DNA of 64,000 nt. It comes from Acidimicrobiia bacterium (GTDB lineage: Bacteria; Actinomycetota; Acidimicrobiia; Spongiisociales; ZC4RG35). The stretch is taken from the NCBI GenBank assembly GCA_041751055.1, contig JBGSYD010000015.1, forward strand, positions 122,018 to 186,017. The letters run 5' to 3'. The position numbers and the translations under genes were made by a program. The notes under the pieces were generated by a model that ran no database searches, was not told where the DNA came from, and saw only the letters and a program-made list of their open reading frames with translations. This document shows, in pieces, positions 42,989 to 51,468 of this stretch (position 1 is the first letter of the stretch; each line of letters begins with the position of its first letter).

Positions 42989-43588
42989 GTGGTGGACCGT
43001 CCCGACGCGGAATTACTCGTCGCATCGTCAGCCGGATCAGCGGAGGCTTACTCCGTATTTTTCCGGCGTCACGCTGATGCGATCACTCGCTACGCCGTTC
43101 GCCGATGTTCCAGTCCCGACGATGTCGCAGACCTCGTCGGCGAGTGTTTTCTCGTAGCTCTTCAGGCCGCACATAGATATGTTCCAGAAACAGACACCGC
43201 ACTTCCCTGGCTTTTCGGTATTGCACGCCGACTTCTTGCTAAGCAACGCCGCAAATACGCTGGCAATAGGCGGCTCGAGATCAAGGTATCGAACGCCTTC
43301 CCGGCGTTCACAACCTGTGAAGATGACGCCATCGCCTCTGCAATCGATGCAGCGATGCAAGCTCCTGCTCTCGAGGAAGCCCTGGCCCGGCTCACCCGAT
43401 CCGAGCGCGAAGTTCTCGAGTTGGTCGCATACGACGGCCTCAGCCCGACGGAGGCGGCCAACGCTCTGGAGATCACACCTAACGCTGCCCGACTCAGGCT
43501 CTCCCGGGCACGCCGTGCAGTCCGGACCTACCTCGACACCACGACTGTGGTGGGAGCGGTTCCAGAGGAGGCCGGGTATGCCCTCTGA
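42989..43588 (+). CDS. ECF-type RNA polymerase sigma-70 factor
   Basis: 199 aa; sigma-2 and sigma-4 regions (LVAYDGLSPTEAANALEITPNAARLRLSRARR helix-turn-helix). Confidence 0.8.
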   Translation: MVDRPDAELLVASSAGSAEAYSVFFRRHADAITRYAVRRCSSPDDVADLVGECFLVALQAAHRYVPETDTALPWLFGIARRLLAKQRRKYAGNRRLEIKVSNAFPAFTTCEDDAIASAIDAAMQAPALEEALARLTRSEREVLELVAYDGLSPTEAANALEITPNAARLRLSRARRAVRTYLDTTTVVGAVPEEAGYAL

Positions 43589-44015: not shown

Positions 44016-44089
44016 TGCGCAGGGCGCCGTGACGGTGGTCGGTTCGCCGACCAGACCGCAACGGAAAAACATTGCGGTCCTCCACAATG

Positions 44090-44118
44090 CAATGGGAGCG
44101 GCTCTGCCGCTCCCATTG
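44090..44118 (-). terminator. perfect 12-bp hairpin 3 nt after the nurA-like gene stop (convergent-gene terminator candidate)
   Basis: CAATGGGAGCGG-CTCTG-CCGCTCCCATTG; lies between the converging anti-sigma and nurA genes. Confidence 0.4.
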
Positions 44119-44120
44119 TG

Positions 44121-45035
44121 TTATGCGGCCACACTTGCCGACGCTCGGCGCAAAGCTCGTACGGCAAGTTCGCGATCACCGAGCCGGTGTTTGAGATCGC
44201 GCTCCAATCCCCCGATCGGGTAGAGATTCTGCGGCGCGCGGGGATCTTTGTGCCGTTCTGAGGCATACCTGGGCAATGTGGCGGTAACCCGGTCTGAGAT
44301 CCGGGCTGCTTCGGCCACGGTCATGTCGGCCTCGATCTCGCATCGCACCAGACCTCCAGCGGGCCCGGCATGATTTGCGAGGCGGATGTACCACGAATAT
44401 CGGCTCCAGGAAGTCGTGGTAAGGAACATCGGTGTTCGATATCCGGAGGGCAGGCCGGTGAGAACAGAGCGCAATTCGAGTGGCAGATATTGCACTTTCT
44501 GCGTCTTGATGTAACCGACAGCCCGGGGAAGGTCGCGTCGGTGCGATAGCGGGCCATCCACCACGATCATCTCAGCGTCGCCGGCCTCGCGCGCCACTTT
44601 GCCTTCGAGGTCTCCCATCCTCTGTTGGATGCCGAGCCAGAGCTCCTCTGAAGTTGTCCCCTTGGTGGCCTTGACCTTGTATGTGCCGACCGATGTCTCG
44701 ACATCGTCTGCGCCCGAGGACGTGAACAGCCCCCGCCCCACCTCGGATACCTCCAGGATCGCTTTGCCGTTGCAGCGAACGGCACCCGCGGCATATGTTG
44801 CTGCAAGGGCAAAACCAGGGAAGTCCGGCGGCTGGTCGATCCACAAGCTGGCATCAACACGTCGTACCCCGTCGACAAAGAGGATGTCGGTCCCGGGGTC
44901 GATGTCGGGTGCGATCGGTTTCCAGTCGTCGATTTTCACTTCGATGTCGGCCGCGACATTTTGACTCGCGTCGTCCATCTCCGCGTCCGTTGGCGCCCCA
45001 TAGTCCGCGTCCCAAGTTTCGACCGTGAAGTTCAT
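44121..45035 (-). CDS. nurA: NurA-like nuclease (assignment mainly by operon context)
   Basis: 304 aa; ATGA overlap with the rad50/sbcC stop; Asp-Gly-containing motifs (FVDGV, EMIVVDGPLS) and GYIKTQ motif compatible with NurA 5'-3' nuclease fold; last gene of herA-mre11-rad50-nurA order. Confidence 0.5.
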   Translation of the reverse strand: MNFTVETWDADYGAPTDAEMDDASQNVAADIEVKIDDWKPIAPDIDPGTDILFVDGVRRVDASLWIDQPPDFPGFALAATYAAGAVRCNGKAILEVSEVGRGLFTSSGADDVETSVGTYKVKATKGTTSEELWLGIQQRMGDLEGKVAREAGDAEMIVVDGPLSHRRDLPRAVGYIKTQKVQYLPLELRSVLTGLPSGYRTPMFLTTTSWSRYSWYIRLANHAGPAGGLVRCEIEADMTVAEAARISDRVTATLPRYASERHKDPRAPQNLYPIGGLERDLKHRLGDRELAVRALRRASASVAA

Positions 45036-47398
45036 GCGACAACCAACTCGACCTTGGACCCGTCCGGCTCTTTGCTGACACGGAACCGAACCGAGGCCAG
45101 GGCGGCCAACTCTTTGACGTGAGTGATGATGCCCACCATCAGCCCGCGGCCAGCCAGATCTTCGAGCACCGACGCCACGACCTCGAGAAGCTCATCATCG
45201 AGAGTCCCGAAGCCCTCGTCGAGGATGATGGCGTCGAGACCGGTTCCCCCGGAACCGGAGAGAGTCTCAGCCAGCGATAGGGCCAGGGCCAATGAGACAA
45301 GGAAGGTCTCCCCTCCTGACAACGTGGAAATCGGACGAGATTCATTGGCATTTCGATGATCGATCACATCAAACGACCCGTTGGCGTCGGCCGCCAGTGA
45401 GTAACCCTCATCGGACAGCTGGGCCAATAGAGCATTGGCACCTTCGACAAGGTTCGATATCGCCCCCACCATCAGCCATCTTTCGAATCCGTCCGCCTTG
45501 AGATGTTGGCTCAGAGCGCCCGCCACCTTGCCAACATGATTCGCCTGGTCCACTCGCTTCGCAAGGTCCTCTGACTCTTCTTCGAGTGTCTTGTGGCGCT
45601 CAACCAGATTGAGTGCCTGCTCCTGGGCACGGACCACCGCAACCGTGTACTGACCGTCTGAAGGAATCTCCAGGCGTTGGAGTTTCGCCGTGATGCTGCT
45701 CCGGGCTTTCTCCAGATCGTCGACGAGGCTGGCCAGCTCAATCCTGAGTGTCTCAGTAAGGCTGTCGACCTCTGTGACCTTTCGATCGCGCCAACCGAGA
45801 AGTTCCTTCCATTGGACAATCGGATCTTCGCTCTCGGACGGCGTGGGCTCGAGATCGGCCAAGGCCTCGCGGCGACTCATCAGTCGGTTGCCGAGCGACC
45901 GTTGCTCCTCGGCCAGATCCTCGAACTCTCTGCGTTTCGCCTTGATCGGTGTCTCGATCTCGTGAAGGCTGGTTGTCACCGAGTCCAACTTCTCCAACAT
46001 CTGCTCGACTGACTTTCGGGTGGCGTCCAGCGAGCCCAATTCTTCGATGTCGCCGCCCAGGTCGGTGAGCAGCTCGGCCCGCTTTTCCTCGAGAGCCTTT
46101 TGCTCGGTTTTTGCGCCCCCCAGCCGGTTGCTGAGCTCGGACACCCTTTTGCGAGACGCCTGGAGCTCAGCTTCGCCGACCTCGAGCGATTTCCGCGCTT
46201 CGTCGAGTGTGGAAACGTCTGGCTTTTCGAAATCCGGCCCGACGATGTGGTTGCAGACCGGGCAGGTGTCGCCAACCGAAAGACCTGAGGCAAGGTCATG
46301 GGCCGCATGAGCTACCCGGGCTTCTTCGAGAACGTGACGCAACCTATCAACCGAGGAGCCGTGACGCGCCACTTCAGCTTCGGCGGATTCGAGTTCGGAT
46401 TCCAGACCGTCGCTACCTCCAGCTCTCAGTTTTGCCTCGACATCGTCGAGTCGGTCCTTGGTCGTTTGAAGACGGATCAACTTCTCCAGGCTGGGAAGCT
46501 CGGCGAGCAACTCCTCGTACTCCAGGCGTTGTTTCTTAAGTAGCTCGCGACGATCTTCAAGAGCATCCAGCTCCTGTCGCACTTCGTAGATGTGCTCTCC
46601 TAGAGTCTCGAGCTTGGGAGGCGCCGCAAGGTCCAACAACCGCTGTTTCGCCGTCTCGAGGTGCTCGAGCTGGCCCCGATAGCTGGTCGCCTCGGCCGTG
46701 ATCCGGGCGAGGGCCTCCTCCTCGTCGGGTATCGAACCGGCGAGCTCATCGATCTCCTTCGAACGTTTGAGCGCGACCAGACGCCCCTCCTCGTCCGGGA
46801 GGTCGAGGGCGTCGAGCCTGCTGCGAGCGTCCTGGGCCTGGCTGTGCGCCACGGACTCCTTGCTTCGCGCCAGGGCCCGCACAGTTCCGTAGACATCGAG
46901 TCCGAGCAACCCTCGCAGCAACTGCTGGCGTTCGCCCGGGGGGGCCGTGAGAAATCGGGCGAACTCGCCTTGCGGCAACACAACAGTGCGGGTGAAATCC
47001 TCGAAGCTCAGACGGAGCAGTTCGGACACCGCTTCGGTGACATCACCTGCCCCGGAAGCAACGACTTGATCACCATGTTCCAGGCGGGCCTCGGTTGTGT
47101 TGGCACCGCCCGACTTCGTGCGCTGCACCAGGCGGGCCACCGTGTAGCACTCTTCGCCAACGGCGAAATCGAGGGACACCCTGGCCTGCTCTGATGCTGT
47201 TGAGATGATGGGGGCGACCGTGCCGCCACCCAACCGGGGGACTCGACCGTACAGAGCGAAGACCATCGCGTCGATGAGACTGGACTTTCCAGAGCCGGTC
47301 GGCCCGCTCAGGGAAAAGTATTCAACACCTTCGAGGTCGACTTCGACTTTCTTGCGATAGGCCGAGAAGCCTTCGAGGGTGATTTTCAATGGCCTCAT
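45032..47398 (-). CDS. sbcC: SbcC/Rad50-type SMC-like ATPase with central zinc hook
   Basis: 788 aa; N-terminal Walker A SGPTGSGKSS; CPVC hook at residues 379-382 within the coiled coil; C-terminal signature LSGGETFLVSLALALSL and Walker B/D-loop ILDEGFGTLD. Confidence 0.8.
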   Translation of the reverse strand: MRPLKITLEGFSAYRKKVEVDLEGVEYFSLSGPTGSGKSSLIDAMVFALYGRVPRLGGGTVAPIISTASEQARVSLDFAVGEECYTVARLVQRTKSGGANTTEARLEHGDQVVASGAGDVTEAVSELLRLSFEDFTRTVVLPQGEFARFLTAPPGERQQLLRGLLGLDVYGTVRALARSKESVAHSQAQDARSRLDALDLPDEEGRLVALKRSKEIDELAGSIPDEEEALARITAEATSYRGQLEHLETAKQRLLDLAAPPKLETLGEHIYEVRQELDALEDRRELLKKQRLEYEELLAELPSLEKLIRLQTTKDRLDDVEAKLRAGGSDGLESELESAEAEVARHGSSVDRLRHVLEEARVAHAAHDLASGLSVGDTCPVCNHIVGPDFEKPDVSTLDEARKSLEVGEAELQASRKRVSELSNRLGGAKTEQKALEEKRAELLTDLGGDIEELGSLDATRKSVEQMLEKLDSVTTSLHEIETPIKAKRREFEDLAEEQRSLGNRLMSRREALADLEPTPSESEDPIVQWKELLGWRDRKVTEVDSLTETLRIELASLVDDLEKARSSITAKLQRLEIPSDGQYTVAVVRAQEQALNLVERHKTLEEESEDLAKRVDQANHVGKVAGALSQHLKADGFERWLMVGAISNLVEGANALLAQLSDEGYSLAADANGSFDVIDHRNANESRPISTLSGGETFLVSLALALSLAETLSGSGGTGLDAIILDEGFGTLDDELLEVVASVLEDLAGRGLMVGIITHVKELAALASVRFRVSKEPDGSKVELVVA

Positions 47399-48534
47399 GA
47401 GTTGGCCTCGTCGAGGAGCTCGGCAAACAATGCCTCCACTTCCTCATCTACCACGTCGTTGTCTGCGAGGTACTGGTGGAAGGCTTCGGGCCCGGACACA
47501 GTCGTGCGCCCTTCAGAATTCGACGGCCGCTTCATGTCGTTCTCGCGCAACACCACGTCGACAGCGTTGGGAATGGCCCGCCGCACTTCGTCGGCCAGAC
47601 CGACCCGTGCAGATTCGACCAACTCCACGCGTACATACGCATCTTGCAGATCTTCTTTGACGGCCATTACCTGTTCGAGGGTTCCCGTGATCGACACCAA
47701 TTTGCGACCGGCACTCAACGGGACCGTTGTCACCTTCGAAGGATGACCCGGGCCTGCCTCGACGACCAGGACGCCCTTCTGATCGTCGACTTCGCCAAAG
47801 TCCAACTGCAGGGGTGAACCGGAATACCAGACGGCGCCCCCGTGAGGCATTTTTTGCTGGCGATGCAGATGACCAAGAGCGACGTACGACAGGTGCCCTG
47901 GAAACGAAGATGTCGGGATTGCATATCCAAAGATATGGGCAGTGCGCTCTCCCCCACCGGCGAGGGCGCCATAGACAGTGAGATGACTCACCAATAGGTT
48001 CACGGTGTCGGGCGTCATCTCCTCGGACAGGTTGTGAATTATCCGCTGCATGCGGTCGGCATATGCTCCGGCGTGTTGATCGGCGTCATCATCCATGAGC
48101 TGTTGGGCTCTGACGATTCCGCGCTGGGAAACAAACGGGAGCAATGCCACTTTGGTGCCGATCTCGGGGAACTCGATGACTCCTCCATCGCCGGACGATT
48201 TGGGAGTGGCACCCACCGAAATCCGACCCATCTCCAATAAGGGTGACACGGCCTCGAGGCGAGCCGGGTTGTCGTGGTTGCCGGAAATCACGACGACCGG
48301 CGAGACGTTGGCCAGATCGAGCAACGCGCTCCAGACCACAGACTCCGCCGTGGGGGACGGCGACGATGTGTCGAAGAGGTCGCCTGCCACGAGGGTCAGA
48401 TCGACTTCGTTGCTCGCTGCGATGTCACCGATCTCGGCGAGGACCGCTCGATGCTCATCGGTTCGGTCGCGACCTCTGATGCGTCGACCAACGTGCCAAT
48501 CGGATGTGTGTAAAACTTTTATCGTCACGATCAA
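47395..48534 (-). CDS. sbcD: SbcD/Mre11-type calcineurin-like phosphoesterase nuclease
   Basis: 379 aa; phosphoesterase motifs HTSDWHVG, GDLFD, GNHD; ATGA overlap with sbcC. Confidence 0.8.
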   Translation of the reverse strand: MIVTIKVLHTSDWHVGRRIRGRDRTDEHRAVLAEIGDIAASNEVDLTLVAGDLFDTSSPSPTAESVVWSALLDLANVSPVVVISGNHDNPARLEAVSPLLEMGRISVGATPKSSGDGGVIEFPEIGTKVALLPFVSQRGIVRAQQLMDDDADQHAGAYADRMQRIIHNLSEEMTPDTVNLLVSHLTVYGALAGGGERTAHIFGYAIPTSSFPGHLSYVALGHLHRQQKMPHGGAVWYSGSPLQLDFGEVDDQKGVLVVEAGPGHPSKVTTVPLSAGRKLVSITGTLEQVMAVKEDLQDAYVRVELVESARVGLADEVRRAIPNAVDVVLRENDMKRPSNSEGRTTVSGPEAFHQYLADNDVVDEEVEALFAELLDEANS

Positions 48535-48593
48535 GAGCGTAAAGGGAGGGTGTGACAGATCCTGGATTAACGGACACCGGCGGTGTCGGTTAC

Positions 48594-50264
48594 CTACAAG
48601 CCCTCGAACGGGTCTCCAGGACCAGAGGAGCCCACGGGGACAACTGCTTCTGAGGCACGAGTCGCCCAGGCCGGGAATGGAAACTGGAGAACCAGGGGCA
48701 CCGGGAGTTGTGGCTGGCTCAGAATCATGGTGCCCGGTTTGACAATGGTTGCCCTCTGCCGGTGAACGGACGGGAGAAACCCGTATTCCTCACGGGATGC
48801 CTCTGCCGAATCCAACCTTCCCACGACCCGGATCGAGGAGTTCGCAATGATTCGTCGCTCAACCTCGGAGGCAGTCTGTTGGGCGCCGATCAGAATCACC
48901 CCGAGGGATCGGCCGCGCTCGGCAATGTCCAACAGGACCTCCTTGATGGGGCTGGTCCCCTCACGAGGGGCATACTTATTGAGCTCGTCGAGCACCACCA
49001 TCAGCAATTCCTCGCTCTGCCCCGCTCGCTCCTTATCCTCGAACGCCCTTCTCAGGGTGACGCCAACGACGAACCGCTTCGCCCGGTCGTTGAGATTGTG
49101 CAGATCCACAACGGTCACCTGGTTCTCGTCGAGCCGAATGCGGTGTTTCTCCGAATTGGCGACATCGGATCGAATCAACCGCTCGACATGTCTCCGCGAT
49201 GCCTGGAGACGTCTAACAAATGCATTGATAGTTCCGGTCCCCATCGCCGGGCCGGCCCACGCATATCGAAAGTCCTCAGACTGCACGCGTTCGGTCACCA
49301 GGTCGACTAACTCACTGAAGGTCCGGATCTTGACACCGTCGATAACGGCCGCTCCCTCACCGGTCGATTCGGCTTTGCGCAGTTGAGCCATCACGTTGTA
49401 CACAACGGTCGTGTACTGGGCCCGGTCGTCTTCAGCATCCGCAAACAGAAATGGCAGGAGGTCCTGGGAACAGAACTCGTAGATACTCCAGAAGAACGAG
49501 GTGACGTCGTTGCGCGATGCCACATCGGCCGTTGCTCGGTCGTCGTTGACACGGGGAGGAGCGAACAATCCCACCGAATCGAACGGAGTCGACGGGAGAC
49601 CCAGAGCGTTGTATTTGAGGCGCATCTCGTCGTCGAGACGGCTGTTCACCCGATCGAGGTGAAGGAGGTCTTCACCTTTGACATTGAAGATCAGCGCCTT
49701 GGTGTTGACGGTCGCTTTCCCGAGCACCCCACTCGTGAAAAGTGAGTGCAAAAGAAAAGTGGCGTAGCTGGTCTTCGTTGCCACGCCTGAGATTCCAGAG
49801 ATGTTGACATGTGCGCCCCGATCTCCGTTCAGGAACTCGAAGTTGACCCACAGCGGCTCACCGTTACGGGCCAGGCCAACAGGGAACCGCTTCTCCATTT
49901 GATCGAAGAAGAGAGCGCGGTCTCTCTCCTCGCCAACTGCGATGCGCACCGGCTGGCCCGGGCTGGGCGGCACAAATACCTCGGGCTCGAACCTGGTGGA
50001 AGTGACCTGCGCCGCTTCGGAGACCTGCGCCGGCAAGATTCCGTCCTCGATGAGGAAGACGTCAGAGTCGAATCTGGCTCCTTCGTGGCGGGCGATGACC
50101 TGACCCACCATCCCATACATCTTGACCACCTCGCCAGTGGGCAACACCCTCTCGAGGGCGACGACGTCGTCGAGTTGCATGTACTCGCCATCAGCGACGG
50201 CCACCCAGAATTCGAGTGGTGTCGCGTCGCGGGTTCCGATGACTCGGCCAACCATTTCTTCCAT
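48594..50264 (-). CDS. herA: HerA-type FtsK/HerA-superfamily ATPase (N-terminal HAS-barrel plus DUF87-like ATPase core)
   Basis: 556 aa; N-terminal beta-barrel-like region (MVGRVIG...GEVVKMYGMVGQV); P-loop-like NISGISGVATKTS; Walker B MVVLDELNKY; first gene of the four-gene operon. Confidence 0.7.
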   Translation of the reverse strand: MEEMVGRVIGTRDATPLEFWVAVADGEYMQLDDVVALERVLPTGEVVKMYGMVGQVIARHEGARFDSDVFLIEDGILPAQVSEAAQVTSTRFEPEVFVPPSPGQPVRIAVGEERDRALFFDQMEKRFPVGLARNGEPLWVNFEFLNGDRGAHVNISGISGVATKTSYATFLLHSLFTSGVLGKATVNTKALIFNVKGEDLLHLDRVNSRLDDEMRLKYNALGLPSTPFDSVGLFAPPRVNDDRATADVASRNDVTSFFWSIYEFCSQDLLPFLFADAEDDRAQYTTVVYNVMAQLRKAESTGEGAAVIDGVKIRTFSELVDLVTERVQSEDFRYAWAGPAMGTGTINAFVRRLQASRRHVERLIRSDVANSEKHRIRLDENQVTVVDLHNLNDRAKRFVVGVTLRRAFEDKERAGQSEELLMVVLDELNKYAPREGTSPIKEVLLDIAERGRSLGVILIGAQQTASEVERRIIANSSIRVVGRLDSAEASREEYGFLPSVHRQRATIVKPGTMILSQPQLPVPLVLQFPFPAWATRASEAVVPVGSSGPGDPFEGL

Positions 50265-50337
50265 CGAGTTCGAGAGTAGACGTCACCCCGGACAGAATCA
50301 TGCTCCGGAACCACCCGCGACATTTAGGGTTCGCAGT

Positions 50338-51468
50338 GTGAGCGTCGTCGCAATCCCATTCAAAGATGAGGACACGTCGACGGTCCTGTCCAATCTCGAG
50401 ATAGCTGCCGGTCACGATCGAGTCGATGAAGTCTGGGCCGTCGGCACCGACAAAACGGTGAGCGCCGGTGTGCCCGGAATAGCGGCGGCGTCGGGCAAGC
50501 GGATCGTCACATTCCCGGATCGCAGAGTTGGCCGGTTTCGGCCCGGCAAAGGGGACGCCATGAACACGGCACTCCTACACGCAGCGGATAGGTCGGTCGA
50601 CCGGCTCCACTTCTACGATGCCGACATCACCAATTTCGGGCTCGATTGGATCGAGGGCGCCGAAAAAGCCGCGGACCAGGGATTTGACGTGGTTCGACAC
50701 ACGTTTCCGCGAGCGTCTACTGATGCGATGATCACCTGGTTGGTCACGAAACCGCTCCTTGCCATGAAGTTTCCGGGAACGACGTTGCCCCAGATCGGGC
50801 AGCCTCTGGGTGGCGAACTTCTGCTCAGCAGCTCGGCATTACAGGCATTCGCCAATGATCCGGCGGTCGTGCAGAGGTCAGATTGGGGCGTCGACACGAT
50901 GTACACCTACGCCACCGTGGAACACGGGTTCGACCTCTATGAACATCATGTCGCCGATGGCAAACGACACGCCCTATACGGAGATCTGTCCGACCTCAAA
51001 ACGATGCTGATCGAATGTTTCGATGTTGCGGCCCTCCTCCGGCCGCACCCGGTCGCCCATGCCCGCCACGCCGCCGACCCGCCTGCATCCATCCCTTCGG
51101 ATCTCCAGGGCCAGTCGGGATACGACATCGATGCCACCCTCCCACTCCTCACCGCCGACCCGGGCCTCGAGGAGGCCGGCATAATTGCGAACCTGCCGGA
51201 TGGATTGATGACCACGGCCCGACAACTCGTCGATTCAGGGGACTTCCAGGCACTGGACGCAGGGCGTTGGGGAGAAGTCCTCCGAATCGCGGTCGAGGCG
51301 TTCCGGCTTGGAGACAAGGGTTGGGAAGACCTCCTCTTCAGATTGTGGTCGGGCCGGGTGGTCAACTACACGGTCAATCACGCGACAAAGGGGTACCACC
51401 ACGCCATGGACTACCTGGCGTCGACCATCGATCTGTACGAACAGAATTCCCCGAATCGCACCGGTTAG
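50338..51468 (+). CDS. gpgS: glucosyl-3-phosphoglycerate synthase / mannosyl-3-phosphoglycerate synthase-family glycosyltransferase (GT81/GT55-like)
   Basis: RPGKGDAMNTALLHA...HFYDADIT and QPLGGELL motifs align with the GpgS/MpgS conserved blocks GKGxAM...FxDAD and QPLGGE. Start is uncertain: GTG at 50338, or ATG at 50239 which would overlap the herA 5' end. Confidence 0.6.
   Translation: MSVVAIPFKDEDTSTVLSNLEIAAGHDRVDEVWAVGTDKTVSAGVPGIAAASGKRIVTFPDRRVGRFRPGKGDAMNTALLHAADRSVDRLHFYDADITNFGLDWIEGAEKAADQGFDVVRHTFPRASTDAMITWLVTKPLLAMKFPGTTLPQIGQPLGGELLLSSSALQAFANDPAVVQRSDWGVDTMYTYATVEHGFDLYEHHVADGKRHALYGDLSDLKTMLIECFDVAALLRPHPVAHARHAADPPASIPSDLQGQSGYDIDATLPLLTADPGLEEAGIIANLPDGLMTTARQLVDSGDFQALDAGRWGEVLRIAVEAFRLGDKGWEDLLFRLWSGRVVNYTVNHATKGYHHAMDYLASTIDLYEQNSPNRTG

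Follow-up and report, generated by a model that had tools for sequence, protein, structure and literature searches.

The HerA-NurA pair is usually presented as the DNA end-resection machine of archaea, and, to our knowledge, work on its bacterial counterpart has been confined to Deinococcus and Thermus, in which the pair is not linked to sbcCD. The archaeal herA, mre11, rad50, and nurA genes are co-transcribed (PMC2288612), and the four genes are essential in Sulfolobus islandicus. For the Deinococcus radiodurans orthologues, HerA-NurA resection has been shown biochemically and structurally, and the structure of the NurA-HerA complex is available (PDB 7F6D, PMC9960219). In Oceanithermus profundus, sbcD and sbcC are located downstream of the HerA homologue hepA, and this cluster was read by its authors as archaeal-like double-strand break (DSB) repair (Blesa et al. 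2017, PMC5448004). Here, we analysed a stretch of 64,000 nt from an Acidimicrobiia bacterium (contig JBGSYD010000015.1, positions 122,018-186,017; assembly GCA_041751055.1), referred to below as the window, in which the minus-strand block 44121-50264 consists of exactly four co-oriented open reading frames (ORFs) encoding HerA, SbcD, SbcC, and NurA. Judged from its sequence, the block is quite probably a chromosomal, vertically maintained, and conserved DNA-end-processing operon, which combines bacterial SbcCD with bacterial-type HerA-NurA.

The operons of Sulfolobus, Pyrococcus, and Thermococcus have the same four functions as the window operon, co-oriented and in the same order, and co-expression is very probable, but the window encodes bacterial SbcCD and its HerA is barely detectable with archaeal models. 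In Deinococcus, nurA-herA forms a two-gene operon away from sbcCD, whereas in the window nurA is split from herA and placed after sbcC; the regulation also differs, PafBC-type motifs being present in the window operon. The HerA/NurA pair of Oceanithermus is linked to sbcD and sbcC as it is in the window, where nurA comes last; the order reported for Oceanithermus is nurA-hepA-sbcD-sbcC.

The first gene of the block in transcription order is herA (48594-50264; 556 aa, bacterial-type HerA, a hexameric double-stranded DNA translocase/ATPase), followed by sbcD (47395-48528; Mre11-family nuclease), sbcC (45032-47398; 788 aa, Rad50-family ABC ATPase with short coiled coils), and nurA (44121-45035; 304 aa, predicted bacterial-type NurA, an RNase-H-like 5'-3' nuclease), all on the minus strand. 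An earlier inspection of the same letters without database searches (hereafter the sequence-only reading) had given this order and orientation, which agree with the ORF list, and had claimed ATGA start/stop overlaps between the last three genes. Both overlaps are present, as ctcATGAggc between sbcD and sbcC (47395-47398) and as cgcATGAact between sbcC and nurA (45032-45035), and the translational coupling of sbcD, sbcC, and nurA via these overlaps is real. Between herA and sbcD there is a gap of about 59 nt. The sbcD ORF extends to a TTG at 48534 (379 aa from there), but the GTG at 48528 is more likely the start, because its distance from the upstream -10 element fits a leaderless mRNA. The GC content of the block (0.59-0.61) equals that of the remainder of the window. 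The four identities proposed in the sequence-only reading all proved correct, and they are established by hidden Markov model (HMM), structure-match, and motif evidence together with the NurA model described below.

HerA is tied most firmly to the protein of D. radiodurans (drHerA). A PDB sequence search matched it to the drHerA chain 7f6d_B with E=8e-148 and 496 bits over residues 3-540, in two stretches (query residues 3-307 and 307-540), and the match covers the HAS-barrel, RecA-like, and helix-bundle regions by which full-length HerA homology was defined. The two proteins have the same unusual Walker A segment, NISGISGVATKTSYA. According to the structural study, the catalytic residues of drHerA are K175/T176, D487/E488, and D220 (PMC9960219); these align with K164/T165 in the deviant Walker A of the window protein (GISGVATKT, 49767-49796), D426/E427 in its Walker B (VVLDELN, 48972-48998), and the E198/D199 region, where the catalytic acidic residue lies within FNVKGEDLL (49662-49688), all on the minus strand. 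Among 26 diverse homologues, G160, A162, K164, T165, D426, and E427 are invariant, and the ATPase residues including D199 are invariant or nearly so. Generic models did not recognise the protein: Pfam DUF87/PF01935 gave 15.6 bits where 23.2 are needed, and scores on the NCBIfam HerA equivalogs were 12-15 bits against cut-offs of at least 800, which, given the drHerA match, we attribute to the models missing this bacterial clade. The HerA call of the sequence-only reading thus fell short on the generic HMMs and stood on drHerA orthology. By alignment, the window HerA is the drHerA orthologue, within the FtsK-HerA superfamily, and a hexamer, translocase and DNA-dependent ATPase activity, and a 6:2 complex with NurA are predicted for it. 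Its nearest homologues are proteins of metagenome-assembled genomes (MAGs), 83-93% identical among the 120 closest, with named sources mostly in Acidimicrobiia; the identity to Micromonospora HerA is about 63%.

SbcD passed TIGR00619 (174.3 bits, cut-off 77.65) and matched Metallophos (51 bits) and SbcD_C (25.0 bits, cut-off 24.4), and its phosphoesterase motifs HTSDWH, GDLF, GNHD, and GHLH, corresponding to DxH, GD, GNHD, and GHxH, are intact. SbcC scored above threshold on Pfam AAA_23, SMC_N, and SbcC_Walker_B, and the motifs expected of a split ABC ATPase could be read in its sequence on the minus strand: Walker A GPTGSGKSS (47279-47305), Q-loop LPQGEF, signature LSGGE (45308-45322), Walker B ILDEGFG (45206-45226), and H-loop ITH. 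The halves of the ATPase head are parted by a coiled coil carrying a CxxC zinc hook (CPVC, 46253-46264), which is central in the protein (residues 379-382 of 788). The full-length NCBIfam SbcC models failed (TIGR00618, 256 bits against 478.5; sbcc_Bac, 211 against 1420), and SbcC is about 250-340 residues shorter than the NCBIfam SbcC profiles (788 aa against 1043-1130 positions). The nuclease motifs, ABC-ATPase motifs, and CxxC zinc hook are those also found in the SbcCD of Escherichia coli, Bacillus subtilis, and D. radiodurans; unlike typical bacterial SbcC, the window protein is short and shares an operon with herA and nurA.

The assignment of NurA had been the weakest link of the sequence-only reading, where it rested mainly on context, and it is now carried by a Pfam pass, a profile match to D. 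radiodurans NurA (drNurA), and a predicted NurA fold of the RNase-H-like type. The protein passed Pfam PF09376 (24.1 bits, cut-off 21, residues 51-271), and the NCBIfam scan gave no match for it. A profile built from close NurA homologues matched drNurA with E=1e-21 and the Thermotoga protein TM1739 with E=2e-8. An AlphaFold2 (AF2) model from a shallow alignment (16 sequences, 74-87% identical) reached a predicted local distance difference test score (pLDDT) of 41.8; with 64 homologues (about 42-87% identical) the model was confident, with a pLDDT of 89.7 and a predicted template modelling score of 0.87. In this model, the RNase-H-like fold, the lack of which would have spoken against NurA in the 304-aa protein, is present and confirmed at the level of predicted structure. 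Three acidic residues, D55, E144, and D160, did not vary in the 64 homologues, nor in a set of 17 sequences with identities as low as 23%. According to their positions in the modelled fold (D in beta1, E in alpha1, D in beta4), they are candidate catalytic acids; D55 lies in FVDGVRR (44859-44879), and the motifs around E144 and D160 lie at 44598-44615 and 44547-44564, respectively, all on the minus strand. A conserved C-terminal motif, APQNLYPIGGLE, was also identified (44202-44237, minus strand).

Two promoter-like elements of the same architecture, a -26 TGTC, a 12-nt spacer, and a -10 TAnnnT, were found on the gene strand: P1, TGTCCGGGGTGACGTCTACTCT, upstream of herA (50273-50294, minus strand), a motif of the PafBC/RecA-NDp type, and P2, TGTCACACCCTCCCTTTACGCT, in the gap between herA and sbcD (48536-48557, minus strand). 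According to a previous study, the mycobacterial PafBC promoter consensus is tGTCgg(N10)tA(N3)T, 22 nt long, with a -26 element in place of the -35 (PMC8635444), and such promoters should have the motif at positions -28 through -7 and no -35 element. P1 and P2 resemble mycobacterial PafBC promoters in the invariant GTC triplet, in the 22-nt motif ending in a TAnnnT -10, and in the lack of a -35 element, whereas TGTC is mostly followed by RCACCCC in these loci and by gg in the mycobacterial consensus. P1 starts 30 nt upstream of the herA ATG and its -10 ends 8 nt before this ATG, therefore a leaderless mRNA is predicted; the -10 of P2 ends 7 nt before the GTG at 48528. TGTC-N12-TAnnnT has only two matches on both strands of the window (1.89 expected), and both are P1 and P2; from the background rate, we calculate a chance of about 1e-6 that both matches fall in these two short gaps. 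A scan for sigma-70-type -35/-10 pairs gave none on the minus (operon) strand.

The relatives were scanned with a relaxed -10 (YAnnnT) up to 120 nt upstream of each gene. The motif was present upstream of herA in 46 of 81 loci (0.81 expected, about 57-fold) and upstream of sbcD in 14 of 78 (0.78 expected, about 18-fold), mostly where a gap or inserted genes part sbcD from herA; there was no enrichment upstream of nurA (1/65 loci, 0.65 expected), and no match was found upstream of sbcC (0/68 loci, 0.68 expected). Counted from the -10, the first start codon in frame comes after 5-9 nt in 33 of 47 herA cases and after 6-8 nt in 9 of 15 sbcD cases, a spacing that fits what leaderless mRNAs require. 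Micromonospora species share TGTCGTACTCCTCGGGCAGGAT, and the motif occurs in 47/74 loci not labelled non-actinobacterial versus 0/8 labelled as other phyla (Fisher p=0.0007). Salinispora tropica, also of the Micromonosporaceae, appears in the species key of the cross-actinobacterial alignment in the PafBC sigma-adaptation paper (PMC8635444), and sbcD is a PafBC-regulon gene in Mycobacterium smegmatis (PMC11348249). On these motifs, the operon is probably damage-inducible, and P1 and P2 suggest two transcription starts. An inverted repeat, GACACCG-C-CGGTGTC, is also present within 48560-48593, directly 3' of the herA stop and upstream of P2, and could attenuate read-through from herA into sbcD.

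The four-gene block is widely conserved. When one genome per GTDB species was scanned by pattern, at least 590 species had a relative of the window HerA, and the best 80 loci were examined. The four window proteins were used in tblastn against 60 species-level loci whose sequence extends 6.5 kb or more downstream of herA, and 58 of these carry herA-sbcD-sbcC-nurA on one strand and in the same order, so the block that the sequence-only reading expected to see in relatives is indeed kept. Carriers include Acidimicrobiia, many Micromonospora species, Phytohabitans, Plantactinospora, and Egicoccus. Across related loci, sbcD and sbcC meet at a projected junction of -4 nt (median), and the sbcC-nurA junction is -4 nt in 21 of 64. 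The premise of the sequence-only reading that bacterial HerA-NurA is usually unlinked from sbcCD did not survive in the sample examined, since the linkage was found in these 58 loci and in four plasmid loci of three phyla; together with Oceanithermus, they indicate that linkage is common in bacteria, Deinococcus and Thermus being the unlinked cases. The block is thus real but ordinary in Actinomycetota, not rare, its components and the kind of system are already known, and the operon is widespread. Public records annotate it in part, naming its products "ATP-binding protein", "exonuclease SbcCD subunit D", "SMC family ATPase", and "hypothetical protein" or "NurA". In the literature searched, the generality of the bacterial four-gene linkage and the PafBC-type promoters seem under-described, and older papers may already describe the linkage.

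Four-gene clusters of Cyanobacteria and Chloroflexota were examined as plasmid copies only. A Streptomyces linear plasmid carries herA-sbcD-sbcC-nurA in the order of the window, and a Sphaerospermopsis plasmid carries nurA-herA-sbcD-sbcC, where the first gene was confirmed as nurA by iterated profile; the Chlorohelix and Aulosira plasmids have a hypothetical gene of NurA-like size, then herA, sbcD, and sbcC. Thus, nurA (or a gene of its size) precedes herA in the cyanobacterial and Chloroflexota plasmid loci, whereas it is last in the actinobacterial block. On the Chlorohelix and Aulosira plasmids (L086:3577-5568 and L087:3651-5766), a conserved trio precedes the herA-sbcD-sbcC cluster, annotated in Chlorohelix as a sigma-70-family factor, a hypothetical protein, and an ImmA/IrrE peptidase; this trio may represent PprI/IrrE-type damage-responsive control in non-actinobacterial carriers. 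Block-carrying loci are also labelled Dehalococcoidia, Longimicrobiales, Saprospiraceae, Gammaproteobacteria, and Acidobacteriota, with HerA 65-71% identical to that of the window, and eight loci with non-actinobacterial labels (L027, L032, L035, L048, L022, L023, L029, and L037) show the four-gene order where the sequence suffices. Either the block has spread horizontally, or these MAGs are mislabelled.

DSB resection, which the sequence-only reading had offered as one of its possibilities, is the best-supported reading of the locus, which shows HerA-NurA orthology, intact motifs, conserved linkage, and the damage-type motif. In the proposed mechanism, DNA damage would generate single-stranded DNA and thereby activate a PafBC-type WYL regulator, which would adapt the housekeeping RNA polymerase to the -26/-10 hybrid promoters P1 (herA) and P2 (sbcD). 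The products would be leaderless herA and sbcD-sbcC-nurA mRNAs, with ATGA coupling of sbcD, sbcC, and nurA presumably keeping their stoichiometry matched. From what is known of its family, SbcCD would recognise and open blocked, hairpin, or protein-bound DNA ends. By orthology, the HerA hexamer would then use ATP (K164/T165, D426/E427) to push the duplex into a NurA dimer (D55/E144/D160), and NurA would degrade the 5' strand and leave a 3' tail for RecA. The archaeal-like gene order would reflect this functional coupling and not a recent archaeal transfer.

A bolder version, which we hold only tentatively and would not yet bet on, is that the four actinobacterial proteins work as a single resectosome, induced by damage through leaderless -26/-10 promoters under the RecA-independent PafBC response, and that their genes cross phyla as a self-contained module. 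If this were true, bacteria would have a further end-resection route alongside RecBCD, AddAB, and AdnAB, and the archaeal model of Mre11-Rad50/HerA-NurA cooperation would become testable genetically in culturable Micromonospora or Streptomyces. The operon is stable in Actinomycetota, the same four genes are clustered on plasmids of some Cyanobacteria and Chloroflexota, and Micromonospora and Phytohabitans provide culturable carriers; the linkage, the sbcC-nurA coupling, and the PafBC signature make a testable case for bacterial HerA-NurA acting with SbcCD in break repair. The locus leaves the kinds of known systems unchanged, and it is a useful specialist lead, not a surprise.

Several points weigh against a resection operon of this kind. 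The in vivo role of bacterial NurA-HerA is ambiguous, and we know of no bacterium in which a physical interaction of SbcCD with HerA-NurA has been shown. The TGTC-N12-TAnnnT motif has only seven fixed bases, and pafBC was not found in the window by an incomplete scan covering ten ORFs of about 330 aa, so a PafBC-type regulator can only be inferred. Block loci with labels of other phyla point to horizontal spread, plasmid copies adjoin Wadjet-like and ImmA/IrrE genes, and defence systems (TdpAB) have taken up NurA/HerA homologues. The last points bear on the possibility, raised in the sequence-only reading, that the block is an anti-phage or anti-plasmid module destroying foreign linear DNA, comparable with SIR2-HerA, DUF4297-HerA, TdpAB, Lamassu, or Wadjet. 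The copy on the Streptomyces sp. BB1-1-1 plasmid NZ_CP134205.1 (L084, 1-6319) adjoins Wadjet-like TIGR02680/TIGR02678/DUF2397 genes, the block apparently moves between phyla, and PADLOC matched HerA to mad8 (40.6 bits) and "HerA type III coevolved" (34.5 bits), and SbcC to LmuB (103 bits) and mad3. These PADLOC-DB v2 matches, however, cover the ATPase cores only, NurA gave no match and SbcD marginal ones, and no SIR2, DUF4297, tdpC, or other effector or modification gene was present in the flanks scanned; the likeness to SIR2-HerA, DUF4297-HerA, and TdpAB is partial and weak. Moreover, the housekeeping flanks are conserved across relatives, the GC content is flat and mobile-element boundaries are lacking, the promoters match a DNA-damage regulon motif, the HerA family hardly occurs in phages and plasmids, and the HerA identities given above, both among close homologues and to Micromonospora, are not typical of fast-evolving defence genes. 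Because of the housekeeping flanks, the partial PADLOC matches, and the near absence from phages and plasmids, a dedicated defence role is weak as an explanation and we regard it as quite improbable.

It could also be argued that SbcCD and HerA-NurA are independent systems which merely share an operon and form no joint resection machine, SbcCD acting on hairpins or replication-termination intermediates and HerA-NurA acting, for example, in chromosome segregation or RecJ-linked processing. The two pairs are unlinked in Deinococcus (PMC8708640) and Thermus (PMC5448004), drHerA was reported to interact with RecJ (PMC4663267), several relatives tolerate insertions of 1-4 kb between herA and sbcD, and herA and sbcD-sbcC-nurA have separate promoter motifs. 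Yet nurA, although parted from herA, is coupled to sbcC by an ATGA overlap that recurs as the -4 nt junction of relatives, an arrangement with little reason if NurA need not be produced along with SbcCD, the four genes are found together in at least four phyla, in one of two orders, P1 and P2 carry the same regulatory motif, and archaeal Mre11 interacts with HerA (PMC2288612). The sbcC-nurA coupling and the two gene orders across phyla make independence hard to hold, and we consider it unlikely. The gene order, which is that of the Sulfolobus "mre11 operon" of herA, mre11, rad50, and nurA (PMC4351679), might instead suggest that the operon was recently acquired whole from archaea, an origin that could be read into the sequence-only reading, which called the order archaeal. 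The model scores point the other way: SbcD reached 174 bits on the bacterial TIGR00619 but no more than 56 on archaeal Mre11 models, SbcC reached 256 bits on the sbcc model and 130 at best on Rad50 models, and HerA gave only 12-15 bits on archaeal HerA equivalogs. In the PDB sequence search, no archaeal HerA structure was found at E<=10, whereas drHerA reached 8e-148, and the GC content equals the background. Orthology of the components to archaeal proteins was not found, and homology to them holds at the family or fold level only; recent transfer from archaea was rejected on model scores and fold distances, and we find it barely credible. A bacterial DNA-end-processing operon therefore remains the reading that we prefer.

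Two stable hairpins are predicted directly after the nurA stop (44055-44125, minus strand), the first at 44083-44125 with a 13-pair stem and five outer pairs, and the second at 44055-44078 with a 9-pair stem. Their minimum free energy is -42.1 kcal/mol (z = -7.7), and 0 of 200 shuffles were as stable. A pattern scan also picked out 44069-44090 as a terminator-like hairpin, with a TTTTCCGTTG tail after it, and an inverted repeat (I7) coincides with this region. From the predicted structure, the transcription unit probably has its 3' end at these hairpins.

On one flank, the block is bordered by a divergent mannosylglycerate-synthase-like glycosyltransferase, an EamA transporter, a HIT protein, and a glucose/sorbosone dehydrogenase, and on the other by an ECF sigma factor, an EamA transporter, a pyridoxamine-oxidase-like protein, gpsA, and ychF; these flanking genes recur in relatives. 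The glycosyltransferase gene (50341-51468, plus strand; PF21969, 290 bits) diverges from herA and shares with it a 76-bp region (50265-50340), an arrangement kept in the close relatives L001 and L002. The ECF-type sigma factor gene (42989-43588, plus strand) is convergent to nurA with small ORFs around it, as in L001, and no link to the operon is evident. The window scan found no tRNA and no boundary repeats around the block, and a mobile island was rejected on these grounds together with the flat GC content.

The relatives also vary in ways that touch the block itself. Unrelated genes of 1-4 kb, such as an oxidoreductase, are inserted between herA and sbcD in some of them. In L015, a short contig without sbcD, a gene for an AlkZ-like glycosylase (L015:6025-7245; PF06224, 212 bits) directly follows herA, in the usual place of sbcD; AlkZ-like glycosylases are an interstrand-crosslink repair family, which gives another DNA-repair association of herA. 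No NurA was detectable after sbcC in L037, L050, and L053. L050 and L053, with the related L052, belong to a small group of Acidimicrobiia MAGs; at the place of nurA, L050 has a 546-aa ORF (L050:14528-16165) and L053 an ORF of at least 396 aa, truncated by the contig end (L053:6189-7376), both without a Pfam match; the ORFs after sbcC in L050 and L053 may replace the nuclease partner. In L037, the single downstream ORF tested (268 aa) had no Pfam match. Frameshifts or abnormal overlap were seen in two long-read MAGs (L019:14171-15195 in nurA; L022:11215-14061 in sbcC/nurA), and they are probably assembly errors, not pseudogenes.

Finally, outside chromosomes, the HerA family had two distant phage matches and plasmid matches in 6 of 72,556 records. 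On the Streptomyces plasmid locus L084, a divergent gene for an ImmA/IrrE metallopeptidase lies beside the block. In Marinitoga camini virus 1, a temperate virus of Thermotogota (L088, KP836355.1, 3639-6347), a NurA-like exonuclease gene is followed by herA, whose product is 27% identical to the window HerA, and the pair, without sbcCD, is located near a LexA-like repressor.

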